Below are positions 4,814 through 63,064 of a stretch of 64,000 bases of DNA, piece after piece (within the stretch, counting starts at the first letter, position 1; every line of letters starts with the position of its first letter). The notes beneath the pieces are model-generated. The model was not told the DNA's origin. It made no database searches and saw only the letters and a list, made by a program, of their open reading frames with translations. This stretch comes from an uncultured bacterium. Its GTDB lineage: Bacteria; Acidobacteriota; HRBIN11; JAKEFK01. Both the position numbers and the translations under genes were made by a program. Location: contig CAWINI010000003.1 in the NCBI GenBank assembly GCA_963837395.1, positions 430,889 to 494,888 of the forward strand. The letters run 5' to 3'.

Positions 4814-7558
4814 CTACTGGCGAATCGACCTGCGAAGGGGCTCCCGTCCGTAGAGATATTGAGTAATGGTTTCTGACACAACCGAAAATGAATTCAGCGC
4901 GCGATCGGTAACTTCGGCAGCACGTTTTACATAAATGTAATTCCGGATTAGTGCAGTGAGTGAAAGTAATGGAACGAGTGAGAATAATACAAATGCAATC
5001 AACATTTTCTGGAAGAAACTAAATCGAATCGGAGTTTCTTCCTGGAAGTGAAGTAACAAATACGGTTTAAAGAAGAAGACGAAAGTTAATGTAAACGCAA
5101 GGAGCCAGAAAAAGTTCAGCAGTACAAGACCTATGATTAGAACGAGATGCGAAAGTGCTTTTCGCACAGGCACTGCAAGAGCGGCAAACCCATCCTGAAG
5201 ATGAAAATAATAAACATTAAATCCCTGACCGCTGCAGGTTTGTCGAACCCAGACACTTCCGGTTTGTTCAAGTGCATCTCTAGCACGATCCACTCTTGGC
5301 GAAACATCAGGATCTGATTGATATATGGGATGCCAGAACGAATCATACACATTTAGATCGGGAACGATTGATCCAGGCCGCTCCGGCCGCTGACGAAATA
5401 ATTCCTGAAAAGGACTTTCGGAAGGAACAAAAGTCAAATTTTCATGGTTGGCCATTGCTTCAACCACAAGATAAAAAGAATTATTTACAATACGGACACT
5501 AATCAAAATCGGTTTCTTAATTGTTCCAAATAAGACATTAGCCGATTTCGTATTCCAGTCATTTCCCGCACCACGACCGGTTACATTGATGTTCAATGAA
5601 GGCAAAGCAAGCGAGAAACGGCTTAAAAGTTGTCCATTTAAACTGTACAAGCTGACTGCAGATCGCAAACCCTGCCGCGCCATTTCCGTACGGATCCAAA
5701 GCCGATATGCAAGATCAGGAATGCGGGTATCAAGGGACACCGTACCAACTGCGCGATCGAGATCCTGTAATGAAATGTTCACTGCCTCCTGAACGTGTTT
5801 TCGGATTTCGTAAACTTGTGGCGCTGCAACGCTCTCAATGTATTTCTGTTGAAAATCTTTTGTGTAATGAAATCGGGTGAAATAAAAGACAACGCTGATT
5901 GCGGAACACAAAACTACCGTAATGATAAATCGCGTTAAGAGATTTACGTGTTCAAACCAATTCCAAAGTCCTGGTGTGTAATAAACGAAAAGTGAAATCC
6001 CAAGAAACAATGCTGCTGCTGGAATCAGCGGCATTGAAAAGGAAGGCTGGAAGATAAAGAAAAATGCAGCGAAAGCCGCAATCTGAGTTCCCGCAACTGT
6101 AAGTGCTTTCCATTTTGTTAATGGAAGTTTTCTTATGAAAAACGAAAACAGCAATGAAATTACGACAGTAAATGAAATGTCCAGCCATACTAAACCGAAT
6201 GCAGTAGAAGCTTGTGCAACTTCACCTTCTTCAAAGAAGAATGGCTGAAATCCCATAACGCTTCCGGTGACAAATTCTTTTTGAAGCTTGAAATACGCGA
6301 GAAACAAATATCCAACAAGGAAAGATGAAAGAAATAATGCCGCAATTCGGAAAGCTTTGTTATTGCTTTTCAAATGAAGTTTCAATCTTCGAAACAGCAG
6401 AACTAATGAGAAAACTGCATTCAATGCAAAAAATGAAGTGAAGATTAGATGTCCTGGTGTGTGAAAAATATTTCCATAACCGGCCACATGAAAAACATTT
6501 GTGTTGAACAATGTGCGCGTGCCAAATGTCGAAAATGATCCGAGCGTCAGCACAGAAAGAATTGTGCAACCCAGGAATATCAACCAGTAAGGAACGAGGC
6601 CCGGGCATCCTGGTTGTCCGCAAAAACCAACAAAACTAAATGTCAGAATTATTGTTGTGTAGATGAAGAAGACAAGCGCTAAGCATTCGATCCACCAGTG
6701 CAAATATCGGAATTGAGAAAGCAACATCTTGCCGTAATGTTGTTTGTCATAAACGGCAGAGAGCGAAAATTCATCAGTAATTTTAAAACTCGAAATTTTT
6801 AAGTCAGGCGAGCCTACAGTTGATTCTGTACTGGTGTATAAAAGTCTTGGACGAACAGGTAATCCATCCGTTAAGCGGTTATAAGTGCGCAAATAATAAT
6901 TTTCGACACCGTAATCGGCAGCGATTGGCAACAAGACGGTTACATAATAGAGATCTTCCTTAACACTCATTTCGCGTTTTACTTTCAGGAATTGTTGGTG
7001 CAGATCGTTATAGATGGAAACTTCTTCGGCGCCATAGGCAGGAAAATCTTCGTGGGTGCGTGGTTGACCCCGCCATGTTAGGAGTCGTCCTTCACGATAT
7101 ACGCCCCACCAGTAATCAACATCTCCAAATTTTTGCTGTAGCCGGATTTGGATTTGACCGGGATTCATGCCCGCAGTGCCGCGTAGTTCGTCTTGTATTG
7201 AAGTGAGCCGATCACGAGCTTGCTGCAAAAAGCGAGTAGTGCGTTCCTGTACTACTTTTGTACTGCGATCAACTTCACGTTGAAAATTTGCTTCAGAATA
7301 ATTGTGGTAAGCAACGAGCTGAAAGAATTCAACCAACAGAAGAATGGTGATTGAGAACCAGAGCAGCGCAACACCATAACGAGGTCTACCTTCAATAACC
7401 TTGAGCAGTAGTGGAATTACTGCAATAAAAAGAAGGGCAGCTAAGAAAAGGGCAACAGCATGAGTATGAACCTGCGGTTCTATCCGCATCCAGAGGTAAA
7501 GGAGTAGAAACGGTACGACGATAAAGCAGCGCTTTATTTCCGGGGACAGCCATTTCAT
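4814..7558 (-). CDS. Large polytopic membrane protein (about 14 TM segments plus two soluble loops). It is probably the sensor module of the adjacent histidine kinase.
   Basis: Many hydrophobic segments in a 914-aa ORF. It sits directly upstream and co-oriented with HK ORF 3198..4757, whose open frame overlaps its 3' end. Confidence 0.55.
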   Translation of the reverse strand: MKWLSPEIKRCFIVVPFLLLYLWMRIEPQVHTHAVALFLAALLFIAVIPLLLKVIEGRPRYGVALLWFSITILLLVEFFQLVAYHNYSEANFQREVDRSTKVVQERTTRFLQQARDRLTSIQDELRGTAGMNPGQIQIRLQQKFGDVDYWWGVYREGRLLTWRGQPRTHEDFPAYGAEEVSIYNDLHQQFLKVKREMSVKEDLYYVTVLLPIAADYGVENYYLRTYNRLTDGLPVRPRLLYTSTESTVGSPDLKISSFKITDEFSLSAVYDKQHYGKMLLSQFRYLHWWIECLALVFFIYTTIILTFSFVGFCGQPGCPGLVPYWLIFLGCTILSVLTLGSFSTFGTRTLFNTNVFHVAGYGNIFHTPGHLIFTSFFALNAVFSLVLLFRRLKLHLKSNNKAFRIAALFLSSFLVGYLFLAYFKLQKEFVTGSVMGFQPFFFEEGEVAQASTAFGLVWLDISFTVVISLLFSFFIRKLPLTKWKALTVAGTQIAAFAAFFFIFQPSFSMPLIPAAALFLGISLFVYYTPGLWNWFEHVNLLTRFIITVVLCSAISVVFYFTRFHYTKDFQQKYIESVAAPQVYEIRKHVQEAVNISLQDLDRAVGTVSLDTRIPDLAYRLWIRTEMARQGLRSAVSLYSLNGQLLSRFSLALPSLNINVTGRGAGNDWNTKSANVLFGTIKKPILISVRIVNNSFYLVVEAMANHENLTFVPSESPFQELFRQRPERPGSIVPDLNVYDSFWHPIYQSDPDVSPRVDRARDALEQTGSVWVRQTCSGQGFNVYYFHLQDGFAALAVPVRKALSHLVLIIGLVLLNFFWLLAFTLTFVFFFKPYLLLHFQEETPIRFSFFQKMLIAFVLFSLVPLLSLTALIRNYIYVKRAAEVTDRALNSFSVVSETITQYLYGREPLRRSIRQ

Positions 7559-9508: not shown

Positions 9509-11026
9509 CTACGAGCTCCGTGTTTGCGTCTGTGTCTGTGTTTGAGTCTGAGTCTGTGACTGTGATTCTAACATAGGCTCAGTTTCCGCTTCAGGCTCCT
9601 CTTCGGTTTGCGTTTGAATCTGCGTCTGCGTTTGCGTTTGTGTCTGCGTTTGCGTTTGTGTCTGAGTCTGCGTTTGCGATTGCGTGGCCTCAGTTTCCGG
9701 AGGTGGAGGCGGCTGTCGTGTCAGACAGACTAAGTGTCCATCGTTCAAACCAAGAAACAAACGATCATTCGCCGTCATTGGCGCAGAACGGATACGAACG
9801 CCGGCATTGAAGTCTCCAACTCGTAAGCCTGTGTGTGGATCAAATCCTAAAACTACAGTTCCAAATGGAGCAAGAAATATGAGTGCACGATCAAAATGCA
9901 TTCGATTGTAAACGCGAGACAATGTCGGACTCAACCATGTATGCCCACCATTTTTGATTTTGAAACTGTAAAGGAAATTATCGAATGAAGATGTAATAAC
10001 GTCTTCAACACGATTCAATCTTTCATTCTTATAAAACATCGGCACACCGCGAATCGCTGCACCAGTTTTATACTTCCAATACTGTATTCCTGTTTCAGGA
10101 TCTAATCGATAAAATGTTCCATCTTCGGTTCCAAAGAAAACACCTTCCGGACCAGCAATTGGTGAACCTTGAATTTCAGCACCTGCAACAAATTTCCATT
10201 TAACAAATCCCGCTTGAGTATCAACCGCGTAGAGCGTTTTATCATTGCAACCTACGAAAACTTTTTTGTTGTACACCCATGGTGAAGTCATACAAGGCGC
10301 ATCAATTTTAAAACGCCATCCGGGATCGCCTGTCTTTGCATTAATGCTGACGATAGATCCTTTCTGGCTAACAAAATACAAATTCTTTTCATCTGCCATC
10401 GGACGTGTCATGAAACTTTCACCATCAAATTGTTTTCGCCAATAAGCTTTTCCCGTGTCTGCTGAAATCGCGAAAATTTTTCCACCAGTCGTTCCAACAA
10501 ACAAAGCACGATTAATCAAAATAAACGCTTCTTCAATTCCATCACCTACATTCGCACGCCATACAGCCTGGCCATTTTCCTGACTCACCCGATGGATTCC
10601 GCCGGTTTTACTTGCGACATAAACAGTTGATTCATCCGTTTGTGGCTGAGCAACCAAAGGTGCAGGCGTTTTGTATTTCCAGCCCAACTGTAATGGAAAA
10701 CCAATGTAAAGATACTGCGATTGTGGCTGTGTTTGAGTTTGGGTCTGGGTTTGGGTTTGGGTCTGTGTTTGCGTTTGAGTTTGTGTTTGAGTTCGCGAAG
10801 TTTGAGTAGGTTTCGTTTGAGCCAGAACTTGCGCAAGGAGCTTAGCGCCAACAGATTCATCAACCGTAGGGTTTTGAAAAAACTCAGGCTCTGAATGATC
10901 CTTGTGCTGAATCAATTGGACAATTCGCTGAGACGCACGTACGGTGAGATTCAAATAAAGGCCGGATAATACTAGCGTCAGTACGATCAGTAACTTGTTG
11001 AGCTTCATAACTCGAATTCTTGCCAT
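9509..11026 (-). CDS. Exported PQQ-repeat beta-propeller protein flanked by (TQ)n low-complexity tracts. An alternative start at 11008 overlaps the upstream stop as ATGA.
   Basis: Repeated 'G.I.A.D..TG...W..' motifs such as 'GKIFAISADTGKAYWRKQF', 'LYAVDTQAGFVKWKF' and 'FYRLDPETGIQYWKY'. Signal-like N-terminus. TQTQTQ runs at both ends. Confidence 0.75.
   Translation of the reverse strand: MARIRVMKLNKLLIVLTLVLSGLYLNLTVRASQRIVQLIQHKDHSEPEFFQNPTVDESVGAKLLAQVLAQTKPTQTSRTQTQTQTQTQTQTQTQTQTQTQPQSQYLYIGFPLQLGWKYKTPAPLVAQPQTDESTVYVASKTGGIHRVSQENGQAVWRANVGDGIEEAFILINRALFVGTTGGKIFAISADTGKAYWRKQFDGESFMTRPMADEKNLYFVSQKGSIVSINAKTGDPGWRFKIDAPCMTSPWVYNKKVFVGCNDKTLYAVDTQAGFVKWKFVAGAEIQGSPIAGPEGVFFGTEDGTFYRLDPETGIQYWKYKTGAAIRGVPMFYKNERLNRVEDVITSSFDNFLYSFKIKNGGHTWLSPTLSRVYNRMHFDRALIFLAPFGTVVLGFDPHTGLRVGDFNAGVRIRSAPMTANDRLFLGLNDGHLVCLTRQPPPPPETEATQSQTQTQTQTQTQTQTQTQTQIQTQTEEEPEAETEPMLESQSQTQTQTQTQTQTRSS
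9510..9700 (-). repeat. Hexanucleotide-period coding repeat (ACN-CAR)n encoding the C-terminal (TQ)n/(QT)n tracts.
   Basis: Plus-strand text reads gtytgngtytgn... (for example gtttgcgtctgtgtctgtgtttgagtctgag). Confidence 0.8.
10725..10800 (-). repeat. Hexanucleotide-period coding repeat encoding the N-terminal (TQ)n tract.
   Basis: gtttgggtctgggtttgggtttgggtctgtgtttgcgtttgag. Confidence 0.8.
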
Positions 11027-20480: not shown

Positions 20481-20516
20481 GACTCAGCCCCCGTTCGAAA
20501 CTGCGGCCTATCTAAT

Positions 20517-20593
20517 TTACCGCAGAGAACGCTGAGATCGCAGAATTAAATTTTTACCAGAATTTCTGCGTTCTCTGCATACTCTGGCGGTAA
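20517..20593. repeat. Imperfect palindromic REP-like element, TTACCGCAGAGAACGC...GCGTTCTCTGC...GGCGGTAA.
   Basis: Inverted arms are read directly. A second copy lies at 24437..24505 and a partial copy near 27888. Confidence 0.6.
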
Positions 20594-24436: not shown

Positions 24437-24505
24437 TTACCGCAGAGATCGCAGAGCACGCTGAATATTTATTATTTCTGCGAACTCTGCGTGCTCTGCG
24501 GTAAA
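24437..24505. repeat. REP-like palindrome TTACCGCAGAGATCGCAGAGCACGC...GCGTGCTCTGCGGTAA.
   Basis: Near-perfect inverted arms. Same family as 20517..20593. Confidence 0.65.
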
Positions 24506-24509
24506 AATT

Positions 24510-25898
24510 CTAGGCGACGGGTTGTCGGGGGCGGGGCCGTGAAGGTTTATGCAAGGTAACTTTGCCTTCTTCGCAAGCTCTTCCGAATGCATCAACAATT
24601 TTCGGATCGTATTTTACATTTGCCATGGTACGGATCCGATTTAATGCAAACTCCAATGTAAAAGCTTTTTGATACGGCCGATCAGTGGTCATTGCATCAA
24701 ATGTATCTGCAACTGTAATCACACGGCCAAACAGTGGGATATCTTCGCCTTTCAATCCCTGCGGATAACCACTGCCATCATAATTTTCATGGTGAGCACG
24801 CATTCCCGGAATAATGTCACGTAATTGTTCGATCTGCGCAAGAATTGCTGCACCTTTATCTGGATGCGTTTTCATAATTTCAAATTCATCAGGCGTAAGA
24901 TTGGTTGGCTTGCGAAGAATTCGATCATCAATTCCGATTTTGCCTACATCGTGCAGCAAAGCTGCGATTTCCAAACGCTCTAACTCTGCGGCACTGAATC
25001 CTAAAGAACGCCCAATTACCATGGTGTAGTCTTTTACACGCTCAGAATGTCCGCGTGTATACGGATCTTTTGCATCGATTGCTGCTGCAAGCATCCGGAT
25101 CGAACTCATAAACAATTCTTTGTTTTCACGCGCAGCAGCTTGAAGACCAAGAATGTTTTGTTTCACCTCATCTGTCATGTAATTGAAAGTGTCAGCAAGC
25201 TGTTGAATTTCGTTGCTTGCTTTCATCTCAATTTTTTTATCGAAGGTCTGATTGCGGCCAACATCCAGTGCGTGTTGTGCCAATTTTTGAATCGGCTGCG
25301 TAATCCACCGCGCAAATAAGAAGCCAACCACCGCAGCTAGAAGTGCAAATAGAATACTGAGTCCCACTGAAGAGCGGATCATTTGCCCTACGGATGCAAA
25401 TGCAACATCGCGTTCAATTTGAACGATGACTCCCCAGCCAACATCTTTCACTGCAGAATTGGATCCGAGAACTTCAAGCGTTTTATTTCCTTGCTTTTCT
25501 TCATATAACCGTACTGTAGAAACACGACCTTGTGTGCGAATGAAATCACTTACAATTGCAGTCTTAGAAAGATCGCGTCTTTGCTGCATATCTTGTTTTT
25601 TCGGACTTAAAATTAATTTCCCGTCATGATCTACAACATAAACATTGATTGCCCCAACACTTTCGTCATTCAAAATTTGAAACAATGGATCTGCACTAAC
25701 AATCACACTCAAAACGCCAATTATGTTGTCTGATGCATCCTTCAATGGTTCCGCAATTAGAATTACTGCAGTGTTATCTTCAGCGATGTAATAAGGATCG
25801 CTAATGAACGATTTACCCTGGATCGCAATATTGAATGCTTTTTCTTCTTCATCCATTACGCTTCTATCATCAAACTCAGGACGCTTTGCTCTAGGCAC
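24510..25898 (-). CDS. HAMP / HD-GYP phosphodiesterase, the C-terminal part of a Cache-type sensor. It is separated from 25891..26250 by a frameshift.
   Basis: 'LLHDVGKIGI', 'HHENYDGSGYP' and a HAMP domain after the TM. The frame is open upstream to about 25930. Confidence 0.8.
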   Translation of the reverse strand: MPRAKRPEFDDRSVMDEEEKAFNIAIQGKSFISDPYYIAEDNTAVILIAEPLKDASDNIIGVLSVIVSADPLFQILNDESVGAINVYVVDHDGKLILSPKKQDMQQRRDLSKTAIVSDFIRTQGRVSTVRLYEEKQGNKTLEVLGSNSAVKDVGWGVIVQIERDVAFASVGQMIRSSVGLSILFALLAAVVGFLFARWITQPIQKLAQHALDVGRNQTFDKKIEMKASNEIQQLADTFNYMTDEVKQNILGLQAAARENKELFMSSIRMLAAAIDAKDPYTRGHSERVKDYTMVIGRSLGFSAAELERLEIAALLHDVGKIGIDDRILRKPTNLTPDEFEIMKTHPDKGAAILAQIEQLRDIIPGMRAHHENYDGSGYPQGLKGEDIPLFGRVITVADTFDAMTTDRPYQKAFTLEFALNRIRTMANVKYDPKIVDAFGRACEEGKVTLHKPSRPRPRQPVA

Positions 25899-30300: not shown

Positions 30301-31044
30301 ATGGAGTTCTTCAAATCTATAGTTAATGTCCTTACAAATCCTCCGATTCTAATCTCGACTGCAATGATCCTGTTTCTCATTGTGGTAAACCTGCGCGGAT
30401 TCTGGAAACCACTTCCTGCAAAAATCCTTTTCGCACTCGCCGCCGCCTTCATGCTCATCAGCATTCAAGATCCAAACTTTAGAAAAATTGTTGTCGCACC
30501 TGATAACGTTCCAATTGTAGGAATGCTTTTCCTGGTTGGATTTTTTGTGTGGTACGCACTGTATAAAGCGAAATCAAATGATGAACGCTTAGAACAAAAT
30601 TTGCCGGTACGTGAAGCGGAAGATAATGAAAAAGTTTTGGTGTGGCCGAATCTTGTTTACACTGAAATGATCTGTCTCGTGATTTGTACCGCGATTCTGA
30701 CAATCTGGGCAATCGGTTTGAAAGCTCCATTAGAGGCGCCGGCCAATCCTGCTGATTCACCCAATCCATCCAAAGCACCATGGTATTTTCTCGGCCTTCA
30801 AGAAATGCTTGTTTATTACGATCCATGGCTGGCGGGAGTTGTGTTTCCAAGTCTGATCATTTTTGGATTGATGGCAATTCCATTCATTGATGTAAATCCA
30901 AAAGGCAGCGGCTACTACACATTCAAAGAAAGGAAATGGGAAATTTCGATTTTCCTTTTCGGTTTTGTGATCCTGTGGGTCATGTTAATCACGCTTGGAA
31001 CATTTTTGCGCGGCCCAAACTGGAACTTCTTTGGGCCCCTATGA
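30301..31044 (+). CDS. Cytochrome b C-terminal half, subunit IV-like.
   Basis: TM protein directly after cytochrome b6. 'PEWY'-region-like 'PWYFLGLQEML'. Confidence 0.7.
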   Translation: MEFFKSIVNVLTNPPILISTAMILFLIVVNLRGFWKPLPAKILFALAAAFMLISIQDPNFRKIVVAPDNVPIVGMLFLVGFFVWYALYKAKSNDERLEQNLPVREAEDNEKVLVWPNLVYTEMICLVICTAILTIWAIGLKAPLEAPANPADSPNPSKAPWYFLGLQEMLVYYDPWLAGVVFPSLIIFGLMAIPFIDVNPKGSGYYTFKERKWEISIFLFGFVILWVMLITLGTFLRGPNWNFFGPL

Positions 31045-31377
31045 ATTTTGGGATGTACACAAAGTTCTCGTTTTAAACAACGTTAATTTATCGGAATATT
31101 TTTGGGTAATTGCCTTAGGCAAAGGGTTGCCATCACAATGGTGGCTCCGTGAAAGCCTCGGATTTTTGTTAGTCGGCTTTTACATTCTGGTGCTTCCAGT
31201 TTTGCTGGCAAAAACAATCTTCAAACGGTTTTACGTAAAGATGGGACCGGCAAGATTTTACATCGGTGTTTTTTTATTTTTAGCGATGTTTGCATTACCG
31301 CTAAAAATGTATTTACGCTGGCTATTTAACTTGAAGTACATAATCGCTATACCGGAGGCCTTCTTTAATATATAGAA

Positions 31378-31465
31378 AATCGTAATCTTACTCTTACTCG
31401 TACTCGTAATCGGAAAAAACGAATCGAGTAAGAGTAAGAGTAAGAGTACGATTACGAGTACGATT
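31378..31465 (+). repeat. Hexamer-repeat hairpin element, copy A. AATCGTA-(CTYNTA)n, loop, (TAAGAG/TACGAG)n-TACGATT, ending 2 nt before the ATG at 31468.
   Basis: Left arm aatcgtaatcttactcttactcgtactcgtaatcg, loop gaaaaaac, right arm gaatcgagtaagagtaagagtaagagtacgattacgagtacgatt. Confidence 0.8.
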
Positions 31466-31467
31466 TT

Positions 31468-34365
31468 ATGGCAAAGAAAGACTCAGATCACGCATACGAC
31501 ATCAATAAGTTGAACATGTTTTTTGCGATTTCCAGCATCATCATGTTCGCATTTTTTGCATGGATGTTATGGCAGGATTTCAATCGTGATTGGAAACGTG
31601 TTCAAGCTCAATTCCGGCGTTTAGAAAAAGCTCGTACTGCATCACTCATACAAAAAGAAGAAGCTACGCTCCAAAGCAATCCGGAATACACAAAAGTTCA
31701 GCAAGAATTAGAAGCAGCAAAAGCGGAACAAAAACAGCAACAAGCTGAATTCGAAAAAGCACAGAAAGATCAAAAAGACATTCAGGGAGTGTGGTACAAG
31801 GCGGATCAGGCATTTCGATTTAAGAAGGCAGAATATGAAGCCAAGCGCTACGATTATGAAGAAGCAGAGGCTGAGCATCCGAAAAGTGCCGCAAAAAAGA
31901 AGGAAGAGCTTGATAAAAGTTTTAATGCTATGCAAGATCTCCAGCACAAACTAGATGAAGTGAATGGCAAGAAATCGGCAATCGATGCGAATGTAGAAAA
32001 ATACACGAAACGGATCGATGATCTGGACAAAGAAAAGACAAAGATTCAGACGAAGTTAGATCGGATGGAACGCAAGGAGGCTAATTTTTCGGCTTCCCCT
32101 GCAAATATTTTCCGCAATCTTCCATTAGTTGATTTCATCGGACCTTCCATCAAAATTCAGCAGGTTGTTGTTGACAATATATATGAAGATATCAACTTCA
32201 CCCGAATTCAACGTGTCGATCGCTGTATGACCTGCCATGCATCAATTGATCAGGATGGATATAACGAAGGCGACAAAATTCCGGACTACGGCGAGATCAA
32301 ACAGCCATTCGTTTCACATCCGAAGTTAGATATTTTCGTTGGTACTACATCAAAGCATCCGATGGATCGATTCGGATGCACTTCATGTCATCTTGGAAGA
32401 GGACGTTCTACAGATTTTGTTGGTGCTGTTCATGTTCCGGACAATGAGGAAGAAAAGAAGCGTTGGGAAAAAGATCATGATTGGCACAAGATGCATCATT
32501 GGGAATATCCGATGTATCCAAAGAGCATGGTGGAAGCTTCGTGCATTAAATGCCATCAAGGTGTTGCTCAAATTCCTGGCGGCGAAAAAATCAACGTGGC
32601 TCGATATCTGTTCATTGAAAACGGTTGTCATGGCTGCCATCTGACAAAAGGATTTGAAAATCTTCCGAAAGTTGGCCCGGATTTGCATCATATTAGCAGC
32701 AAGGTAACGAAAGAATGGGCTTTCAAATGGATCAAAAATCCAAAAGCTTTTCGTCCGACTACACGTATGCCCCGTTATTTCGGAAACTCTAACAACAGCG
32801 ATCCTGAAGATGTTGCACGTAATGAAGTTGAAATCCGATCGATGGTTGAGTATCTATTCGCAAAAGCTGAACCGATCGATTATGAACCTGTAACACTTTC
32901 CGGCGATCCAGCAAACGGCAAAACGCTCGTTCACGACCTGGGATGCGTAGGATGCCATCTGGCAGAAGGAGATACGCCATCTGGCATAAATACCCGCCGC
33001 CGTTTCGGGCCGCCATTGGTGAAGCTGGGATCGAAGACAAATGCTACCTGGCTGTTTAACTGGTTAAAAGAACCCCGCAATTATGCACCACAGACCCGGA
33101 TGCCCAACATGAAGCTAAGCGATCAAGAAGCAATGGACATCGCTGCTTATTTGCTATCAATTCGAGATACGGCATGGGAAGGGCAAAAAGTTCCGACTCT
33201 TCAAGAAAAATATTTGAAAGATGAAATCGTATTCCATTTAAAACGGCAGTACGGTATTGCAGCAGAAGAACAATACAACAAAATGTCTGAGCAAGAACGC
33301 TGGATGTTCTTAGGTGAAAAATCGATCTCACGTTACGGCTGTTCCGGTTGTCATTTGATACCCGGATTTGAAACAGCAAAAGGGATCGGTACATCGCTTT
33401 CGGAAGAAGGAAGCAAGAAAGTTACAAAGTTTGATTTTGGATTTGTTGATATTGAACATGAAGTACCGGATTACATCACACAAAAATTGCATGATCCGCG
33501 TTCATTTGATCATGAACGTGTGAAACGGTGGGATGAAAAGTTGATCATGCCCAATTTTGATTTCAGTAATGAAGAAACTGCATCACTGACAATGTTGATC
33601 ATGGGATTGACCAATGAGCGCGTTCCGGCAGAGTCGCAGGCAGTGCTGAATGATAGTCAGCAAGTTGCAGAACGTGGGCGTTGGTTAGTATTGCAGAAAA
33701 ATTGTGTCGCATGTCACAACATTGATGGATGGGGCGGTGAAATTCGTGAAGTCATCAAAGAAGAAGGAATGGCCCCGCCGTTGCTGATTGAAGAAGGTGA
33801 TAAAGCGCAATCAGATTGGTTGTTCCAATTTTTGAAAGCGCCGGGGCATATTCGTCCGTGGTTAAAAGTACGAATGCCGAATTTCCGGTTATCGGATGAA
33901 GAAGCGAATACGCTGGTGCAATTCTTTATGGCGGCAACAAAGAGTGGTCCGTTTAATAGTCCACCTGATATTACAAATCATCTTGCAGAAGGCGAGCACA
34001 TCTTCAAAACATTCCAGTGTTCAGTGTGTCACGTTATTCAAGGAGTTGTTCCTCCAAACAGAGCTGCGGCAGATCTTGCACCGGATCTCAGCATGGCGCG
34101 AACCAGATTGCGTGCGAGCTGGATTTTGAAATGGTTGGAAGATCCGCAAAAATTACAGCCCGGCACTCGTATGCCTGACTTCTTCCCTGAGGCAGCGATG
34201 CCAGGTGTTTTGAATGGCGATCCGAATTTGCAAAAGGAAGCGATCCGCAACTATATTTACAGCCTCGGCCAGGGAAATCTTGCATCGATTTTGAGTCCGG
34301 CAGAAGCTGCGTGGTATGAACCTAAAAAAGCGCACGCGACTGCAGAGAATGTTGGAACAAAATAG
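31468..34365 (+). CDS. Membrane-anchored multihaem c-type cytochrome with eight CxxCH motifs.
   Basis: CMTCH, CTSCH, CIKCH, CHGCH, CVGCH, CSGCH, CVACH, CSVCH. N-terminal TM and K/E-rich coiled coil. Four repeats of 'W.F.W.K.P...TRMP'. Confidence 0.85.
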   Translation: MAKKDSDHAYDINKLNMFFAISSIIMFAFFAWMLWQDFNRDWKRVQAQFRRLEKARTASLIQKEEATLQSNPEYTKVQQELEAAKAEQKQQQAEFEKAQKDQKDIQGVWYKADQAFRFKKAEYEAKRYDYEEAEAEHPKSAAKKKEELDKSFNAMQDLQHKLDEVNGKKSAIDANVEKYTKRIDDLDKEKTKIQTKLDRMERKEANFSASPANIFRNLPLVDFIGPSIKIQQVVVDNIYEDINFTRIQRVDRCMTCHASIDQDGYNEGDKIPDYGEIKQPFVSHPKLDIFVGTTSKHPMDRFGCTSCHLGRGRSTDFVGAVHVPDNEEEKKRWEKDHDWHKMHHWEYPMYPKSMVEASCIKCHQGVAQIPGGEKINVARYLFIENGCHGCHLTKGFENLPKVGPDLHHISSKVTKEWAFKWIKNPKAFRPTTRMPRYFGNSNNSDPEDVARNEVEIRSMVEYLFAKAEPIDYEPVTLSGDPANGKTLVHDLGCVGCHLAEGDTPSGINTRRRFGPPLVKLGSKTNATWLFNWLKEPRNYAPQTRMPNMKLSDQEAMDIAAYLLSIRDTAWEGQKVPTLQEKYLKDEIVFHLKRQYGIAAEEQYNKMSEQERWMFLGEKSISRYGCSGCHLIPGFETAKGIGTSLSEEGSKKVTKFDFGFVDIEHEVPDYITQKLHDPRSFDHERVKRWDEKLIMPNFDFSNEETASLTMLIMGLTNERVPAESQAVLNDSQQVAERGRWLVLQKNCVACHNIDGWGGEIREVIKEEGMAPPLLIEEGDKAQSDWLFQFLKAPGHIRPWLKVRMPNFRLSDEEANTLVQFFMAATKSGPFNSPPDITNHLAEGEHIFKTFQCSVCHVIQGVVPPNRAAADLAPDLSMARTRLRASWILKWLEDPQKLQPGTRMPDFFPEAAMPGVLNGDPNLQKEAIRNYIYSLGQGNLASILSPAEAAWYEPKKAHATAENVGTK

Positions 34366-41996: not shown

Positions 41997-42416
41997 CTAC
42001 AGTTTAGAACTGCGAGTTTGACGCCATGAAGAAATGCCGCGCAGTAGCGAACCTGCGAACACCAAATAAACTCCCATTGCTGTGATCGGCCGATCGATCA
42101 CTGTTCGCGGACTTTCCATGCAGAAGCCAATAAAAATCAGCACAGGAGCGGTCAGGAGAAAAACAGAACCGATGATCGAAACAACCGTTTCTTTACGATC
42201 GCTCGCTGTGCCGAATGCAAAATTCAACAAACCAGACATCAGCAAATAAATATGAGCGCTTCGAAATAAAACACGGATTGAATCACCCAGATCTGACATC
42301 GGCGGCTGATGAAAGCGCATGAACATTCCGGTGCCAAGAAAAACAATGATGATGATCAATCCATAATACCGATGGATCAAAATCCATTTTGATGACACCG
42401 GTAGCGAAGTTTCCAT
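41997..42416 (-). CDS. Membrane protein (hypothetical, about 4 TM).
   Basis: Hydrophobic segments only. Confidence 0.45.
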   Translation of the reverse strand: METSLPVSSKWILIHRYYGLIIIIVFLGTGMFMRFHQPPMSDLGDSIRVLFRSAHIYLLMSGLLNFAFGTASDRKETVVSIIGSVFLLTAPVLIFIGFCMESPRTVIDRPITAMGVYLVFAGSLLRGISSWRQTRSSKL

Positions 42417-42421
42417 ACAAA

Positions 42422-42478
42422 AATTTTTGTCCGCCGCGGCGGACGATCCCCAATGCGGACTAAAGTCCGCGTTCCTTC
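42422..42478 (-). terminator. Two GC-rich hairpins, the second followed by A/T-rich sequence (terminator-like), downstream of 42480..42935.
   Basis: gcggactttagtccgc and gtccgccgcggcggac followed by aaaaattttt on the minus strand. Confidence 0.4.
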
Positions 42479-42479
42479 G

Positions 42480-42935
42480 TTAGTCTGTTCCGCCTTTCCA
42501 GCTTTCTTTTTCAACTCTCCAGGTCTTGTCTTCAAGAACCATGTGAACTTCGCCAGTTTGTTTCGATGCGGCGCCTTCAGCCTTCCCTTCTACGTTTAAT
42601 GTCGCTTCTTTAGACGTCATAGTGCCGCCAATGATTTTGATGTCTTTCGGTTCAAGCGCTTGCATCATTGGAAGCATCTCTTTCATCTGCGGATCATCCA
42701 ATTTTTTCGCGCGATCCGCTGTGACCATTTTCTTGAGAGCCGGTATGTCACCAGCTGAAAACGCTTTGGTATATGCCAGATAAGCTTTTCCGGGCTCGCC
42801 GCCATCAGCTGGTAATGCTGTAGGCTTTTCTGCATCAGCAGCAAACAGTGGAGGTGAAATTAGCAGTACGAACACGAACAGAATCGTAAATCTCTTGAGC
42901 ATCGAGTCCTCCTTGATTGCACCAAATCCTATCAC
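42480..42935 (-). CDS. Secreted hypothetical protein.
   Basis: Signal peptide 'FTILFVFVLLISPPLFAADA'. Confidence 0.5.
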   Translation of the reverse strand: MIGFGAIKEDSMLKRFTILFVFVLLISPPLFAADAEKPTALPADGGEPGKAYLAYTKAFSAGDIPALKKMVTADRAKKLDDPQMKEMLPMMQALEPKDIKIIGGTMTSKEATLNVEGKAEGAASKQTGEVHMVLEDKTWRVEKESWKGGTD

Positions 42936-42981
42936 AGGATCTTTGCAACTTTAATAATGCGAATTCGTCTGTTTAAATAAT

Positions 42982-43060
42982 AATCGTACTCAAACTCGTA
43001 CTCTTAATCTTACTCGGAGGATTACGAGTACGAGTACGATTACGAGTACGAGTACGAGTA
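42982..43060 (+). repeat. Hexamer-repeat hairpin element, copy B, ending 7 nt before the ATG at 43068.
   Basis: aatcgtactcaaactcgtactcttaatcttactcg, loop gagg, attacgagtacgagtacgattacgagtacgagtacgagta. Confidence 0.8.
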
Positions 43061-43067
43061 AAAAGAG

Positions 43068-43892
43068 ATGCTAACCACCAGGATCGACATTCTGCCGGAA
43101 CTACAAAATCTTGAAATCGCTGAAACGACTTACAATGATCACGAGTTTCCACGTCATTTGCATGAAACTTATGTAATCGAAGTTGTAATTCAGGGGACCG
43201 TTGAGTTTGAATGTGGAGGCAAACAACATCTTGCTCCAGCCGGCAGCCTCATCCTTTTTCACCCCGGAGATGTCCACACCGGCAGGTCATTATGTAACCA
43301 CACGGTTACATATTCCAGTTTTTGTCCTACGGCTGATTGGATGCAATGGTTTTTAAAAACCACGGATTCTCCCGATCGGACAATAATCTTTCCATCACCT
43401 ACGATGAATGATCCCAAAGTTGCCCGGCTTTTAAAAGCTGCACATGATGCTTTGCAAAATCAAGCCGAAATGTTGCATTCCGAATCCCTGATGATTCTGG
43501 CATTTTCGTATTTGCTACAAAATGAGGCCCCGAAACTGTCGAAACAAAATGAACCACGGGCTATTCAAAAAGCAAAAGAGTACATGACTGCAAAATTTTC
43601 TGATCAAATTCATTTAACCGATCTCGCACAAACTTCGGGTCTCAGTCCATATTATTTTTTGCGATCATTTCAAAAAGCGACCGGGTTAACGCCGCATGAA
43701 TATTTGTGCAACTTGCGAGTCGAAAGAGCGCGAAAGTTATTAGCAAGCGGGGCTTCAATCTCAGATGCGGCTGTGCAGACTGGATTTTTCGATCAAAGCC
43801 ATCTGCATCGCCATTTCCGCCGCCTGCTGGGAATCACCCCTGGCCAGTACAGAGCAATTTTGTACAAGAAGCGCTCAATCCTTCCAGTTTAA
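43068..43892 (+). CDS. AraC-family transcriptional regulator with a cupin-like N-terminal domain.
   Basis: C-terminal 'LSPYYFLRSFQKATGLTPHEYL...QTGFFDQSHLHRHFRRLLGITPGQY'. Confidence 0.85.
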   Translation: MLTTRIDILPELQNLEIAETTYNDHEFPRHLHETYVIEVVIQGTVEFECGGKQHLAPAGSLILFHPGDVHTGRSLCNHTVTYSSFCPTADWMQWFLKTTDSPDRTIIFPSPTMNDPKVARLLKAAHDALQNQAEMLHSESLMILAFSYLLQNEAPKLSKQNEPRAIQKAKEYMTAKFSDQIHLTDLAQTSGLSPYYFLRSFQKATGLTPHEYLCNLRVERARKLLASGASISDAAVQTGFFDQSHLHRHFRRLLGITPGQYRAILYKKRSILPV

Positions 43893-43915
43893 GATCACAC
43901 TACAGAGGAGTGTTT

Positions 43916-45016
43916 ATGAGAATTTCCAAAGCTTTGGTATTGCTATTGATCTTATTCCCTTATTTATTCTTCGCTCAGACTCAAACAAAAAATGCGGCCG
44001 AATATGTTTGCCCACCTTGTGGATGTTCAAACGATGATAAAGTTTTTAATGCTCCTGGAAGTTGCCCAGTTTGCGGAATGCAACTTGTTCCCAAACAACA
44101 AAACCAGGAACAACAACAGTCTATGAAAGCAGCAATCCTTATTTTCGATGGTGTACAGATTATCGATTTCACCGGACCTTATGAAGTTCTGGGTCAAGCC
44201 GGAATTGATGCTTTCACGGTTGGAGAAAAAGCAAATCCAATTCGAACAACCATGGGAATGACAGTCACGCCTACGTATACATTTGAAAACGCTCCACCTG
44301 CTCAACTTCTGATCGTTCCCGGCGGCGATGTACAAACCCAAAATAAAAACATCATTCAATGGATTCAGCAAAGAGCGAAATCTGCTGATTATGTTCTTTC
44401 CGTTTGTAATGGAGCTTTTTATCTTGCAGAAGCAGGATTGCTGGATGGCCGCGATGCTACAACGTTTTACAATTTGATTGATGACCTACAAAAAACTTAC
44501 CCGAAGGTACATGTTGTAACAAACAAACGTTATGTGGATAACGGCAAAATCATCACATCTGCTGGATTGTCATCAGGCATCGATGGAACCCTGTATTTAA
44601 TCTCAAAGATTCATGGAAAAGGAATCGCGCAACAAGTTGCTCTGAACATGGAATACAACTGGCAGCCAGGATCTACTTATGCGCGTGCGGATTTCGCGGA
44701 CAAATATTTGCGCCGGATGACGAATCGCAGGCTTCAACTTGAAATTCCAAATCAAGTGGACGCGAAGGTGGTGAATACCCATGGCAGTGACGATCAGTGG
44801 GAAGCAGAATGGGAACTTCAGGCGAATTCCAGTATGCCTGAAATCAAAAACTATTTGGAAGACAAGCTTCAAGGACTTGGCAAATGGTCACGTGACGGTT
44901 CGGGTTGGAAATTTACTGGAGATAATGGAGAAAAATGGGCCGGGAATCTGAATGTCACTCCGATTGATGGCAAACAGAATTTTTATTTGATCAACCTAAA
45001 AATTCACAAGATTTAG
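43916..45016 (+). CDS. Exported DJ-1/PfpI-family protein with an N-terminal Cys-rich metal-binding motif and an extra C-terminal domain.
   Basis: Signal peptide 'ALVLLLILFPYLFFAQT'. 'CPPCGCSNDD...CPVCGM'. DJ-1 core 'LSVCNGAFYLAEAGLLDG'. SD gaggag precedes the internal ATG. Confidence 0.7.
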   Translation: MRISKALVLLLILFPYLFFAQTQTKNAAEYVCPPCGCSNDDKVFNAPGSCPVCGMQLVPKQQNQEQQQSMKAAILIFDGVQIIDFTGPYEVLGQAGIDAFTVGEKANPIRTTMGMTVTPTYTFENAPPAQLLIVPGGDVQTQNKNIIQWIQQRAKSADYVLSVCNGAFYLAEAGLLDGRDATTFYNLIDDLQKTYPKVHVVTNKRYVDNGKIITSAGLSSGIDGTLYLISKIHGKGIAQQVALNMEYNWQPGSTYARADFADKYLRRMTNRRLQLEIPNQVDAKVVNTHGSDDQWEAEWELQANSSMPEIKNYLEDKLQGLGKWSRDGSGWKFTGDNGEKWAGNLNVTPIDGKQNFYLINLKIHKI

Positions 45017-56746: not shown

Positions 56747-58774
56747 ATGCATATAGTACTACCAGCGCGCTTAAAAGAAGGCCAAAAATTAAAGGATCTG
56801 GCCGATGATCAGCCGAATGCAATTTCGGCTTCGAAAAACATAATCCGCGGCAAAGCGCTCATTTTTTGGGACCAAAAACATCCCGGCAAGAAACTAGATG
56901 CGATCGATACCGATCAAATCACTCCTTCAAAATTTTGTGTTTCCGAGAGTTTAGAATCGCTGGATGAGAAATGGAAAGAAGGAGCCTTCCGCTATTTGAT
57001 GCGGGATTTTCGAGAGCGTGTGCATCGCGGCGAGACATTTGTCATCGCCGGTGATCGTTTTGGAATTGGTTCTTCGCGCGAAATGAGTCCTGCCGGTCTT
57101 AAAGCAATTGCAGAAGAAGTTGGCTTACAGATGGTGATTGTTTGCGGAAACAACATGGGTGATATTTTTCGCCGGAATGCATTTAATCTCGGCCTTCAAG
57201 TGGTTCAATCACCTGAAGCTGTTCAAGATGCGCAGGATGGTGATGAGTTTACGTTCGATGTTCTATCGCGCAAATTAACCAATGTAACTCAAGAAAAGGG
57301 ATACGAGCCCCAACCCTTAACACCGAAAGAGGATGAGATTCGAAGAACCGGTGGAATTTTCGCATTAGGCCGCAGAGAATTTCGCGAGTCAGTTGCACGT
57401 AAACCGGAAATTGTTTGGCCCGATCCGGAAACTGCAAAAAAGATGACAACCACAGAACAAATCGTTTGGGCTCATCGTGTGGATAAAGATGCTGTGGTAA
57501 AACCCGGCGCTACTTTGCGGGTGTTTGCAGATTTGCTACCAGCATCTGATGGCACTGCCCCGTTTTCGATTCACACTTTTAATCAAATCACTGGCGGCAA
57601 TACGATCTATCCAAGACAAGCCGCGGTCGCAAATGATCATTTTGTGTTTACCGGAAAAGCAGAAGACGAAGCGCAGACTTCCATCTCACGTGAATTCGCG
57701 AAGATACATAAAATTGAAAAACCATATTATGCAGATCCCGGTGATGGTATCTTTCATTTTTATTTTCCAGAACAAGGACTGGTATATCCCGGACAATTTA
57801 TTCCGGGTGCCGATTCACACAGCCGAGCTTATGGTGCATATGGCGCAGTCGGATTCGGTGTTGGATCAACAACTCTTGGATTTGGATGGTCGACAGGTTA
57901 CGTTTACTTTACTCTTGCGCGCGCACGCCGGGTAATTTTTGCCGGCAAACTTCAGCCATGGGTAAGCGGTAAAGATATCGTTTTGAAATTATTGGAACGA
58001 TGGGGAACCGCACAATCACAAGGGATGTCGGTTGAATTCGTGGATCAAAACAAACAATTGCCTGTTGCGTACCGAAATACAATCGCAAACATGATGGCTG
58101 AAGGTGAAGCACAAAACGGAATTTTTGCGCCAGATGAATTGACGTATGAATGGTATCGCCAAAAAGGGATTACAGAACTTCCCTATCCATCACTGCAACC
58201 CGGTTCTGAAGCATTTTATGAAATCGCTGAAACATTAAATTTAAGTGATGTTGTTCCGATGATTGCGAAACCATTCAGCCCCGGAAATGCATATCCTGCG
58301 GAAGAGGTGGCGAAAGAACATATTCCTTTTGATAAGGCTTACATCGGTTCATGTACGAATGGAAGTTATGATGATTTACTGCAGGCAGCATTGGTGATCC
58401 GTGCGGCACGAAAAGCAGGAATACACAAGACAGCGCGCGATCTGGTGATTTTTCCAGGATCAGGTGGTGTGAAGAAAGCGATCGAAATTTCGGATCCACG
58501 TTTAGGAAATGAATCGATCGCCGATGTGTTTCGATCCGTGGGTGGAGAGATTCGAAATTCGTGGTGTGGTCCGTGTTTTGGGCAAGGTCCGGATGCATTG
58601 AAAATCGGACAACGTGCAATCACATCCTTTAATCGCAACTGGCAAAATCGTATGGGGGTTGGTGGCGAAGGTTATCTTGCAAGTCCGGCTGTGGTTGCAT
58701 CTTCAGCAATGGTTGGATATATGGCTCCTCCAACCGAACTGAATATTAAATGGACCGCGGAACAAAATATATAA
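56747..58774 (+). CDS. Aconitase-superfamily Fe-S hydro-lyase with permuted domain order: a LeuD-like swivel domain N-terminal to a LeuC-like catalytic core.
   Basis: 'FVIAGDRFGIGSSRE' (swivel). 'SCTNGSYDDL' and 'WCGPCFGQG' (cluster ligands). Confidence 0.7.
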   Translation: MHIVLPARLKEGQKLKDLADDQPNAISASKNIIRGKALIFWDQKHPGKKLDAIDTDQITPSKFCVSESLESLDEKWKEGAFRYLMRDFRERVHRGETFVIAGDRFGIGSSREMSPAGLKAIAEEVGLQMVIVCGNNMGDIFRRNAFNLGLQVVQSPEAVQDAQDGDEFTFDVLSRKLTNVTQEKGYEPQPLTPKEDEIRRTGGIFALGRREFRESVARKPEIVWPDPETAKKMTTTEQIVWAHRVDKDAVVKPGATLRVFADLLPASDGTAPFSIHTFNQITGGNTIYPRQAAVANDHFVFTGKAEDEAQTSISREFAKIHKIEKPYYADPGDGIFHFYFPEQGLVYPGQFIPGADSHSRAYGAYGAVGFGVGSTTLGFGWSTGYVYFTLARARRVIFAGKLQPWVSGKDIVLKLLERWGTAQSQGMSVEFVDQNKQLPVAYRNTIANMMAEGEAQNGIFAPDELTYEWYRQKGITELPYPSLQPGSEAFYEIAETLNLSDVVPMIAKPFSPGNAYPAEEVAKEHIPFDKAYIGSCTNGSYDDLLQAALVIRAARKAGIHKTARDLVIFPGSGGVKKAIEISDPRLGNESIADVFRSVGGEIRNSWCGPCFGQGPDALKIGQRAITSFNRNWQNRMGVGGEGYLASPAVVASSAMVGYMAPPTELNIKWTAEQNI

Positions 58775-58857
58775 ATGGGAGGGCGGGCTCTGTGCCCGCC
58801 GTCGGATTGGCGGGCAGGGACGCCCGCCCTCCAGACGCGTTTTATTTTGGAGGCTTT

Positions 58858-59976
58858 ATGACAATTGAAGCAATAAACCCGGCAACCGAAGAAATCATCC
58901 GAACTTATGAGCAAACGACCTGGGAACAAATCGAATCAATTCTTGATGAAATGCAAAAGACGTTTTTAAGCTGGAAAGAAACGAACTTTGCGGAGCGCAC
59001 CCAAAAAATGAAAGTAGCTGCGCGCATTCTCAGGGATCATAAAGACGAATACGCACGATTGATGGCAGATGAAATGGGAAAACCGCTTGCGCAAGGTAAA
59101 GCTGAAGCCGAAAAGTGCGCATGGTGTTGCGATTATTATGCAGACAATGCTAAGAAATTCCTGGCACCTGAAGTTGTAGAAACGGATGCATCGAAAAGTT
59201 TTGTCAGCTATCAACCGTTAGGAATTGTACTTGCAGTAATGCCCTGGAATTTTCCTTTCTGGCAAGTTTTTAGATTTGCAGCGCCAGCATTAATGGCCGG
59301 GAATGCAGGTTTATTGAAACATGCCTCCAATGTTCCAGGTTGCGCACTGGCGATTGAAAAGATCTTTCATGATGCGGGGTTTCCAAAGAATTTATTTCGA
59401 AGTGTTCTTATAAGCAATGATGTTGTCGCCCGCATTATTGAACATCCTGATGTTAAAGCGGCAACTTTAACTGGCAGTACTCCAGCAGGAAAAGCGGTTG
59501 CATCAAAAGCGGGCGAAGTTCTTAAAAAAACTGTACTCGAACTTGGCGGAAGCGATCCATACGTAATCCTGAAAGATGCTGATTTGGATTCCGCTGTTGA
59601 TACCTGTGTTACATCACGATTAATTAATGGCGGACAAAGCTGCATCGCTGCTAAGCGATTTATTGTTGTAAAAGAAGTCAGGAAGAATTTCGAAGATAAA
59701 TTTGTAGCAAAAATGAAATCGAAAAAAATGGGCAATCCGCTGGAAGAAGGAGTGGATGTGGGGCCGCAAGCAAGAATCGATTTGAGGAATGCATTGCATC
59801 GCCAGGTTGTGATCAGCATTGAAAAAGGGGCCCGTTTACTTTTGGGAGGGACGATTCCAGATCACAAAGGCGCGTATTACGAGCCCACAGTTCTAACGGA
59901 TGTGAAAAAAGGGATGCCTGCATATGATGACGAATTGTTTGGGCACTGTTGCCGCAATCATTCCGGTGGAAAATGA
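58858..59976 (+). CDS. NAD(P)-dependent aldehyde dehydrogenase (succinate-semialdehyde-DH-like), N-terminal about 360 aa. It is frameshifted near 59930.
   Basis: 'VMPWNFPFWQ', 'LELGGSDP' and 'GQSCIAAKR' (catalytic Cys). SD ggagg precedes the internal ATG. Confidence 0.8.
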   Translation: MTIEAINPATEEIIRTYEQTTWEQIESILDEMQKTFLSWKETNFAERTQKMKVAARILRDHKDEYARLMADEMGKPLAQGKAEAEKCAWCCDYYADNAKKFLAPEVVETDASKSFVSYQPLGIVLAVMPWNFPFWQVFRFAAPALMAGNAGLLKHASNVPGCALAIEKIFHDAGFPKNLFRSVLISNDVVARIIEHPDVKAATLTGSTPAGKAVASKAGEVLKKTVLELGGSDPYVILKDADLDSAVDTCVTSRLINGGQSCIAAKRFIVVKEVRKNFEDKFVAKMKSKKMGNPLEEGVDVGPQARIDLRNALHRQVVISIEKGARLLLGGTIPDHKGAYYEPTVLTDVKKGMPAYDDELFGHCCRNHSGGK

Positions 59977-60226
59977 AGAAGAAGCAATTCAGGTTGCAAA
60001 CGATTCTGTGTTTGGACTTGGTGCTGCTGTGTTTACACAAGATCTAAAACGCGGGGAAAAAATTGCGGAAGAAAGATTGGAGGCCGGATCTTGTTTTGTA
60101 AATACGTTTGTGAAATCAGATCCGCGTCTTCCGTTTGGCGGGATCAAAGAATCAGGATATGGACGCGAGCTTTCGTATTTTGGAATCAGGGAGTTTGTAA
60201 ACATCAAAACGGTTTACATCAAATAA
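59924..60226 (+). CDS. Aldehyde dehydrogenase C-terminal segment after the frameshift.
   Basis: 'AAIIPVENEEEAIQVANDSVFGLGAAVFT...PFGGIKESGYGRE'. Confidence 0.75.
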   Translation: MMTNCLGTVAAIIPVENEEEAIQVANDSVFGLGAAVFTQDLKRGEKIAEERLEAGSCFVNTFVKSDPRLPFGGIKESGYGRELSYFGIREFVNIKTVYIK

Positions 60227-60230
60227 AATC

Positions 60231-60307
60231 AACCACGAAGCACACGAAGAAGCACGAAGTAAAAAATACTTCAAAAACCTTTGTGGCACTTCGTGATCTT
60301 CGTGGTT
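60231..60307 (+). repeat. CACGAAG heptamer array (three copies) with a downstream inverted copy (CTTCGTG, CTTCGTGG). It lies upstream of the M20 gene.
   Basis: aaccacgaagcacacgaagaagcacgaagt...ggcacttcgtgatcttcgtggtt. Confidence 0.75.
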
Positions 60308-60325
60308 AAAAAAGGGAGGGGATCT

Positions 60326-61765: not shown

Positions 61766-61841
61766 AACCACGAAGTACACGAAGGGCACGAAAAAAAGAA
61801 TCATAGAAAAACTTCTTGCTTCTTGGTGAACTTCGTGGTGT
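61766..61841 (+). repeat. Second CACGAAG array with inverted partner, downstream of the M20 gene in the same orientation.
   Basis: aaccacgaagtacacgaagggcacgaa...gaacttcgtggtg. Confidence 0.7.
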
Positions 61842-61852
61842 GTTCTTGGAAT

Positions 61853-61876
61853 GCCGGCGAGGCCGCCGGCGTTACA
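61853..61876. repeat. Third copy of the GCCGGCGAG(G)CCGCCGGCG(T)TACA palindrome, abutting the stop of the Rieske oxygenase gene.
   Basis: gccggcgaggccgccggcgttaca. Confidence 0.75.
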
Positions 61877-63062: not shown

Positions 63063-63064
63063 GA

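Follow-up and report, generated by a model that had tools for sequence, protein, structure and literature searches.

Hexamer-built hairpins before three start codons of an uncultured Acidobacteriota bacterium are probably REP/MITE-like repeat copies

Three genes of an uncultured bacterium (Acidobacteriota; HRBIN11; contig CAWINI010000003.1) begin directly behind a long hairpin that is built of tandem 6-nt units. The hairpins, termed elements 1, 2 and 3, lie in the 64,000-nt stretch analysed here (the window). They precede the genes of an octahaem cytochrome c with 8 CXXCH motifs, an AraC-family regulator and a Rieske/ring-hydroxylating oxygenase, respectively. A preliminary description of this DNA had named the three genes correctly. 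It had also noted that the right arm (R arm), with its GAGTA units, stops 0-7 nt short of each ATG, which we confirm, and had taken this fixed orientation as an argument against a passive repetitive extragenic palindrome (REP). This raised a question of whether the three start codons share a dedicated control element. We find that the elements are probably copies of a palindromic repeat resembling REPs or miniature inverted-repeat transposable elements (MITEs), the arms of which are inverted arrays of a 6-nt unit. The best reading is that the hairpins are not a dedicated switch for the three start codons.

We compared the three sites with those of relatives, whose contigs (L121-L129, L370 and L371) have 82-89% DNA identity to the window; the nearest named homologues are proteins of Acidobacteriota metagenome-assembled genomes (MAGs). 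At the cytochrome c site, the spacer is only 16 nt in L121 (96% protein and 89% DNA identity). The L122 and L123 contigs have spacers of 30 and 23 nt, respectively, and none of the three carries a repeat. The Rieske gene of L124 (93% protein identity) follows a plain spacer of 30 nt. In L125, the spacer between the Rieske gene and the upstream gene of an OpuAC-type binding protein is 129 nt long and occupied by palindromes of the GCGGAC-N5-GTCCGC type, while the spacer of about 108 nt in L370 and L371 is occupied by GAGGCCGGG...CCCGGCCTC palindromes. Three different palindrome families have colonised this spacer in related lineages.

The AraC site exhibits a different kind of variation. The L129 contig has a clean empty site, in which exactly the 81 nt of element 2 (window 42981-43061) are missing, and L127 retains a collapsed remnant of one left (L) unit and one R unit. 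The L128 contig, syntenic with the window over 16 kb at 87-89% identity, carries a full element at the same position (-43.8 kcal/mol), which differs in unit order, unit number and loop; it has 6 L and about 10 R units, in comparison with 6 and 7 in the window. This is the one copy in the approximately 137 kb of relatives' DNA. The preliminary description had proposed a comparison of repeat copy number across related strains; among these species-level relatives, the number varied at the AraC site, and the element was absent at the other two. The element is missing upstream of orthologues with 93-96% protein identity, unlike a conserved cis-regulatory RNA. Absent or resized in close relatives, with other palindromes in the same spacer, it has not been maintained together with the genes. 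Start regions that lack the element have no structure (-4 to -7 kcal/mol, z about 0). No canonical Shine-Dalgarno (SD) sequence precedes any of the three start codons in the window, as had been noted earlier, and none is present at the element-free orthologues either. Therefore, the missing SD is a property of the genes and not of the element.

Reading the window sequence, we find that the elements are 62-90 nt long and share the plan (TA[A/C]TC[G/T])n, loop, ([A/C]GA[G/T]TA)n (Table 1). A four-unit pattern, GAKTANGAKTANGAKTANGAKTA, matched 16 times in the window, every time inside the three element loci, and gave 0 matches in 100 dinucleotide shuffles of the window; this confirms the shared architecture described earlier. 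No run of two or more hexamer units was found elsewhere in the 64 kb. Element 1 is made of the L units AAATCG TAATCT TACTCT TACTCG TACTCG TAATCG and the R units CGAGTA, AGAGTA (three times), CGATTA, CGAGTA and CGATTT. The element termini read AATAATCG...CGATTATT; the supposed common end TACGATT does not extend to element 2, which ends ...CGAGTAA, and the inter-arm sequence covers 2-14 nt and not 4-8 nt. The difference between the arms is one of whole units, and their best pairing is in a shifted register, suggesting that units were gained and lost by slippage.

Table 1. Positions of the three hexamer-built elements in the window (arm positions of element 3 are given as + strand coordinates)
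Element	Position	Strand	L arm	Loop region	R arm
1	31376-31467	+	31377-31412	31413-31424	31425-31466
2	42981-43061	+	42981-43016		43019-43060
3	62978-63067	-	62978-63025		63032-63067

A real inverted repeat, and not an assembly artefact, is favored at element 2 by a short-read contig of 1.9 kb from an independent dataset (L001, run ERR11718635), which is 100% identical to window 43031-44935 and runs through part of the element. The same strain is thus present in that dataset. The contig starts inside the R arm of element 2 and covers 30 nt of it, which points to the hairpin as a place where short-read assemblies break. Searching Rfam at the gathering threshold with the whole window, and at E ≤ 1 with each element, matched no family; the sub-threshold matches on the elements were generic miRNA-precursor-like hairpins on both strands. 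The tRNA/tmRNA scan found nothing. Literature searching by sequence strings and keywords returned no published description of hexamer-built hairpins, and its incomplete coverage makes this absence of evidence only. These searches agree with the preliminary description, which had not recognised the element as a described one.

The orientation argument did not survive. Reverse complementation of the architecture 5'-(TAMTCN)n..(NGAKTA)n-3' gives the same architecture back. The GAGTA arm is therefore proximal to any flanking gene on either side, and its position is uninformative on function. Consistent with this symmetry, all 120 of the metagenome matches listed hit both strands at identical coordinates. 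These come from a search with an arm-order-specific, flavour-specific pattern, which matched at least 120 metagenomic stretches and gave zero matches in 2.9 million viral contigs. Scanning one genome per species, we find hexamer hairpins in at least 25 MAGs of Verrucomicrobiota, Planctomycetota, Lentisphaerota, Bacteroidota/Ignavibacteriota and Desulfobacterota; most of the matches listed belong to these groups, including Akkermansia within the Verrucomicrobiota and Kiritimatiellia beside the Lentisphaerota. A single-arm pattern is unspecific, as it matches many viral and giant-virus contigs too. Of 58 solo arrays, 22 are intergenic, while the other 36 fall within long open frames and probably encode protein.

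Several family types are visible. Some hairpins are 'naked' like the window copies, while others are embedded in longer dispersed repeats. One MITE-like family of 170-200 bp (alignment A1) has the hexamer core between outer terminal repeats GTTTTGAAGTTGCGC...GCGCAACTTCAAAAC and many copies in one sample; no autonomous partner was identified for the metagenomic MITE-like families. In a contig of a Desulfobacteraceae MAG (L112), a 203-nt repeat that contains hexamer hairpins is present twice in inverted orientation, at 601-803 and 5951-6153. In this contig, the two repeats flank a helicase/MrfA-like gene cluster, and an intergenic period-6 array, (GATTGT/GATTGA)n, follows three genes (143-186, 3715-3758 and 5133-5176).

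We also checked the gene context of about 155 hairpins from genomes other than the source genome, using crude open reading frame (ORF) calls. Gene ends were faced on 116 sides and gene starts on 92, with median distances of 42-51 nt; 48 elements lie between tandem, 13 between convergent and 9 between divergent genes. The wider family is generically intergenic, like REPs, with no start-codon preference. The preliminary description had itself named the absence of an orientation or distance bias to start codons as the outcome that would refute its reading, and this census comes close to it. A further count, of start codons downstream of a GAKTA array (53 vs 30), was dropped as biased, as the inward side of an arm cannot hold a gene start.

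Several observations weigh against a REP/MITE-like repeat, and we set them out together. Only three copies are seen, all within a 64-kb window of the 1.18-Mb source contig. They have nothing alignable in common beyond the 6-nt unit, and the GTAG/CGTC tag that marks classical REPs is missing from their ends. The approximately 53 ORFs of the window include none with a transposase domain; a RAYT, which is a tyrosine transposase of the IS200/IS605 type, is usually single-copy and could lie anywhere in the genome. At locus 2, the target-site duplication is ambiguous: the overlap of 2 nt, AA (possibly TAA), falls in A/T-rich DNA. Loci 1 and 3 offer no clean empty site; there the ancestral spacer was replaced outright and not interrupted. 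A start codon lies within 10 nt in 3/3 window copies but in only 9/67 (13%) of the elements elsewhere, with both flanks scored. The proximity to starts claimed earlier thus holds for the window and not for the wider family; as two of the window sites are spacers of only 16-30 nt in relatives, it is largely forced. Finally, a single-arm, order-neutral pattern found the TAMTC arm 5' of the GAKTA arm in 62 cases and the reverse order in 11, a bias of about 6:1. Both orders would pair equally well, so pairing does not explain the bias. Together with the core unit shared across phyla, it hints at a specific factor or selection, beyond a purely passive model. The tight stop-to-start fit in this lineage, the shared core and the arm-order bias remain unexplained by a REP/MITE-like repeat.

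The rare hairpins of reverse order, with the GAKTA arm first, occur in L003, L021, L029 and L113. Three of these carry outer inverted flanks, e.g. GGCAAAAAGCC...GGCTTTTTGCC in an Acidobacteriota MAG, which suggests that they are a separate repeat family.

One broader proposal would take up the unexplained points. The TA[A/C]TCN inverted-array hairpins of the PVC phyla, Bacteroidota/Ignavibacteriota, Desulfobacterota and this Acidobacteriota-like lineage might form one widespread, undescribed superfamily. Their core and arm order would then reflect a shared trans-acting machine that creates and resizes the arrays, such as a hairpin-specific HUH/tyrosine transposase or a nucleic-acid-binding protein reading the hexamer, and that here places them preferentially from stop to start. 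We regard this as a possible but rather doubtful extension.

The best-surviving alternative is that the hairpin was selected for translation or operon coupling. The stem would mask an initiation region devoid of an SD and set the ratio of downstream to upstream protein, or it would couple two genes by bringing the stop and the start together. The placement of the elements is suggestive of such a role. Element 1, inside the Rieske/cytochrome b operon, is the entire spacer that separates the cytochrome b C-terminal gene, with its stop codon TAG at 31373-31375, from the octahaem cytochrome c ATG (31468). Element 3 is likewise the entire spacer between the OpuAC-type and Rieske oxygenase genes and overlaps both codons: the OpuAC-type stop codon (63065-63067) falls within its outermost unit, and the Rieske ATG (minus strand, 62976-62978) overlaps its last unit by 1 nt. 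Thus, both elements span exactly from stop to start, the far end abutting or overlapping the stop codon of the upstream gene. In addition, a copy at the AraC site is present in a relative at about 88% DNA identity, and the start proximity of the window copies exceeds that seen elsewhere.

The predicted folds also favor coupling in part. Folding the RNA upstream of each ATG, we obtain -40.8 kcal/mol (z -7.9), -34.5 kcal/mol (z -4.7) and -39.1 kcal/mol (z -6.6) for elements 1, 2 and 3. The stems are strong, although their predicted length of 26-37 bp is less than the 35-45 bp suggested before. The idea that the stem hides the SD region is upheld as to stem strength, but in the minimum-free-energy fold of element 1 the last 14 nt or so before the AUG are unpaired. 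Element 2 leaves 7 nt free, and in element 3 the AUG is paired. Such different handling of the start region argues against a single designed mechanism. The three genes are functionally unrelated, the same genes of closer relatives have short unstructured spacers with no hairpin, and the wider family shows no start-codon bias. Nor do the arms covary beyond their unit composition: at the two variable unit positions, the summed score was 104 against 96 for a shuffled-unit null, in a test of low power. We therefore consider a selected coupling hairpin unlikely.

Elements 1 and 3 lie inside operons, at sites where neither promoter-like nor terminator-like matches are present, and should be transcribed with the operon. 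A promoter reading at these two loci was rejected on this ground. An intrinsic terminator was rejected for all three, since none has a terminator-like site and the stems are long and A/T-rich, not short and G+C-rich with a U tract. Element 2 lies in a divergent spacer, 6 nt before the AraC-family ATG (43068); on its other side, the divergent ORF 42480-42935 is 45 nt away. Upstream of this AraC gene, the window, L127, L128 and L129 share a conserved sequence, the perfect inverted repeat GATCCT-ATCAC-AGGATC (with AATCCT in the window; 42926-42942) followed by TTTGCAACTTTAATA, and this region is likely an operator/promoter. As it lies upstream of element 2, the element would be in the 5' leader if transcription starts there.

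In a second alternative, the element would be domesticated for mRNA processing or stability. The stem would be cleaved by RNase III or protect a 3' end, so that neighbouring cistrons differ in stability, as with intercistronic REPs. Stems of 26-37 bp would be long enough for RNase III, two of the three copies are intercistronic in operons, and a repeat-built 5'-UTR hairpin that is cut by RNase III provides a precedent (PMC12721329). However, the site is not conserved in relatives, and such hairpins elsewhere also lie between convergent and divergent genes. This makes a domesticated processing element quite improbable.

A third alternative, the tandem binding-site array considered in the preliminary description, would have a DNA- or RNA-binding protein read the TAMTC/GAKTA hexamer. 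In its favor, four of the six unit positions are invariant, while the other two vary freely and are often mismatched between the arms; the core is common to distant phyla with the 6:1 arm-order bias; and start-proximal repeats with no ribosome-binding site have been described (PMC4679880). But two of the three elements are intra-operon with no promoter-like matches, the family elsewhere is found at gene ends as often as at starts, even between convergent genes, the element is dispensable in close relatives, and no candidate protein could be linked to it. A binding array is thus very unlikely. The last alternative, a phase-variable contingency locus in which gain or loss of units switches or tunes the adjacent gene, is highly improbable. 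The simple-sequence tract it presupposes does vary, as unit number and order at the AraC site differ among the window, L128 and L127 and the arms look register-shifted by whole units, but the differences are between species-level relatives and not strains, the single same-strain contig (n = 1) is identical over the part of the R arm covered, the targets are core respiratory and catabolic genes and not surface or restriction genes, and a unit change in an intercistronic hairpin shifts neither the reading frame nor promoter spacing.

Returning to the REP/MITE-like repeat as the preferred reading, we propose that the element turns over at the DNA level. In intergenic spacers it comes and goes, collapses and changes in size, and the probable processes are hairpin-dependent insertion or deletion together with replication slippage of units. 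It would persist where a looped-out hairpin is tolerated. The transcripts of elements 1 and 3 are predicted to fold into a 26-37 bp stem that would place the upstream stop and the downstream start at one helix base. Such a stem may lower independent ribosome loading at the downstream gene, whose expression would then rely more on ribosomes arriving from the upstream gene and opening the stem. The long double-stranded RNA could also be a target of RNase III or, in the manner of REPs, protect the upstream mRNA end. We infer that any such effects on translation, coupling and mRNA processing would be by-products and not the reason why the three genes carry the element.

If this is true, the three start codons share no dedicated control element, and an annotation as a new riboregulator is not warranted. 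It would also mean that some bacteria fill operon spacers with long tandem-unit hairpins, here a hexamer family and two nonamer-based families in 64 kb. Such spacer hairpins would matter for the prediction of operon expression and start sites and for genome assembly. One hexamer core with one arm order over distant phyla goes beyond the known behavior of REPs and MITEs, and it offers a handle for finding the enzyme or binding protein involved.

Further repeats were observed in the window. A second family of repeat-stem hairpins, with a 9-nt unit, has the form TTACCG(CAGAGNNCG)n ... (CGNNCTCTG)nCGGTAA and occurs at 20513-20592 and 24437-24505 (-33 and -43 kcal/mol), one copy in the ribE-ribBA spacer and the other after the stop of the HD-domain gene 24510-25898. 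Internal loops arise at the two variable bases of each unit. Pieces of this motif (TTACCGCAGAGACGCAAAG, GCGGTAA) lie beside other gene ends and starts of the window and in spacers of L124 and L122. A third family, with the unit CACGAAGNN and its complement, has copies at 60233-60295 and 61767-61840, which flank the M20 peptidase gene 60281-61759. The latter copy is between convergent genes, beside a GC-rich, terminator-stem-like hairpin, GCCGGCGAGGCCGCCGGC (about 61851-61868). GC-rich REP-like palindromes, GTCCGCCGCGGCGGAC and GCGGACTAAAGTCCGC, lie at 42425-42470 between the ORFs 41997-42416 and 42480-42935; they are of the same GCGGAC-N5-GTCCGC type as those in the OpuAC-Rieske spacer of L125. 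The period-6 arrays at 9520-9685 and 10727-10793 (GTTTGC, GTCTGN, GTTTGG) were rejected as family members, as they are coding low-complexity linkers within ORF 9509-11026 (minus strand), the gene of a BamB/PQQ beta-propeller protein.

Two genes of the window appear split by frameshifts. The aldehyde dehydrogenase is divided into the overlapping ORFs 58750-59976 and 59924-60226 (Pfam positions 8-371 and 368-461), and the cytochrome b C-terminal gene into 30301-31044 and 30995-31375, where L123 has a single gene of 357 aa. Both could be pseudogenes; indel errors of the long-read assembly are more likely.

How do the elements compare with known systems? Fur polymerises on arrays of the hexamer GATAAT, and Fur boxes are operators of about 19 bp in the promoters of its regulon. 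The present arrays resemble them in having adjacent 6-bp units, both direct and inverted, and in GATTAT/ATAATC variants close to GATAAT/ATTATC. However, they are 60-90 nt long and often lie within operons or beside gene ends, and the unit seen in the window, TACTCG/CGAGTA, bears little resemblance to the Fur consensus. In the hmw1A gene of H. influenzae, an (ATCTTTC)n 5'-UTR hairpin is processed by RNase III, and the resulting post-transcriptional control is tied to a change in repeat number (PMC12721329). There too a short tandem repeat forms an arm of a long hairpin. In contrast, that hairpin belongs to one locus only, pairs its heptamer repeats with a G-rich arm that is not a repeat, and has demonstrated phase variation (PMC12721329); in the present case each of the two arms is a repeat array, and the element occurs at several loci that are unrelated. 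The TAACTGA heptamers are direct repeats upstream of starts in Beggiatoaceae, Cyanobacteria and Bacteroidetes, with an orientation bias towards the downstream gene, no predicted structure and a proposed trans factor (MacGregor 2015, PMC4679880). Like the hexamers, these are short tandem units that end a few nt before a start, sometimes overlap the upstream stop, usually go with a missing ribosome-binding site and show a patchy spread across phyla. Unlike them, the hexamer arrays are inverted and strand-symmetric, form a long hairpin and, across the wider family, are not biased towards starts.

MITEs are short, non-coding inverted-repeat DNA derived from autonomous elements, with a target-site duplication. 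The window elements are similarly short, non-coding and wholly inverted-repeat, with presence/absence polymorphism, and the metagenomic hexamer hairpins form the core of multi-copy repeats of 170-200 bp with outer terminal inverted repeats. However, the window copies have no outer terminal repeats and are not near-identical products of an autonomous element; their length varies by whole units, and no related insertion sequence is known. The variable number of tandem units expected of a contingency locus is seen at the AraC site, between species-level relatives only. Classical REPs are 20-40 nt long, follow a family consensus and carry the tetranucleotide GTAG or CGTC as a tag on one side, and there is a RAYT link for many of them; REPs, BIMEs and REPINs are exemplified in E. 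coli and Pseudomonas (PMC3733652). The present elements differ from them in length (62-90 nt), in their tandem 6-nt units with two free positions in place of a consensus, in having no tag and in the absence of a transposase from the window. They are nevertheless imperfect extragenic palindromes between genes, often within operons, whose presence varies between related genomes. As REPs do, they are predicted to fold in the mRNA, where REPs can affect the stability and translation of the mRNA of neighbouring genes, and the spacer that holds element 3 in the window is taken up by other REP-like palindromes in some relatives.

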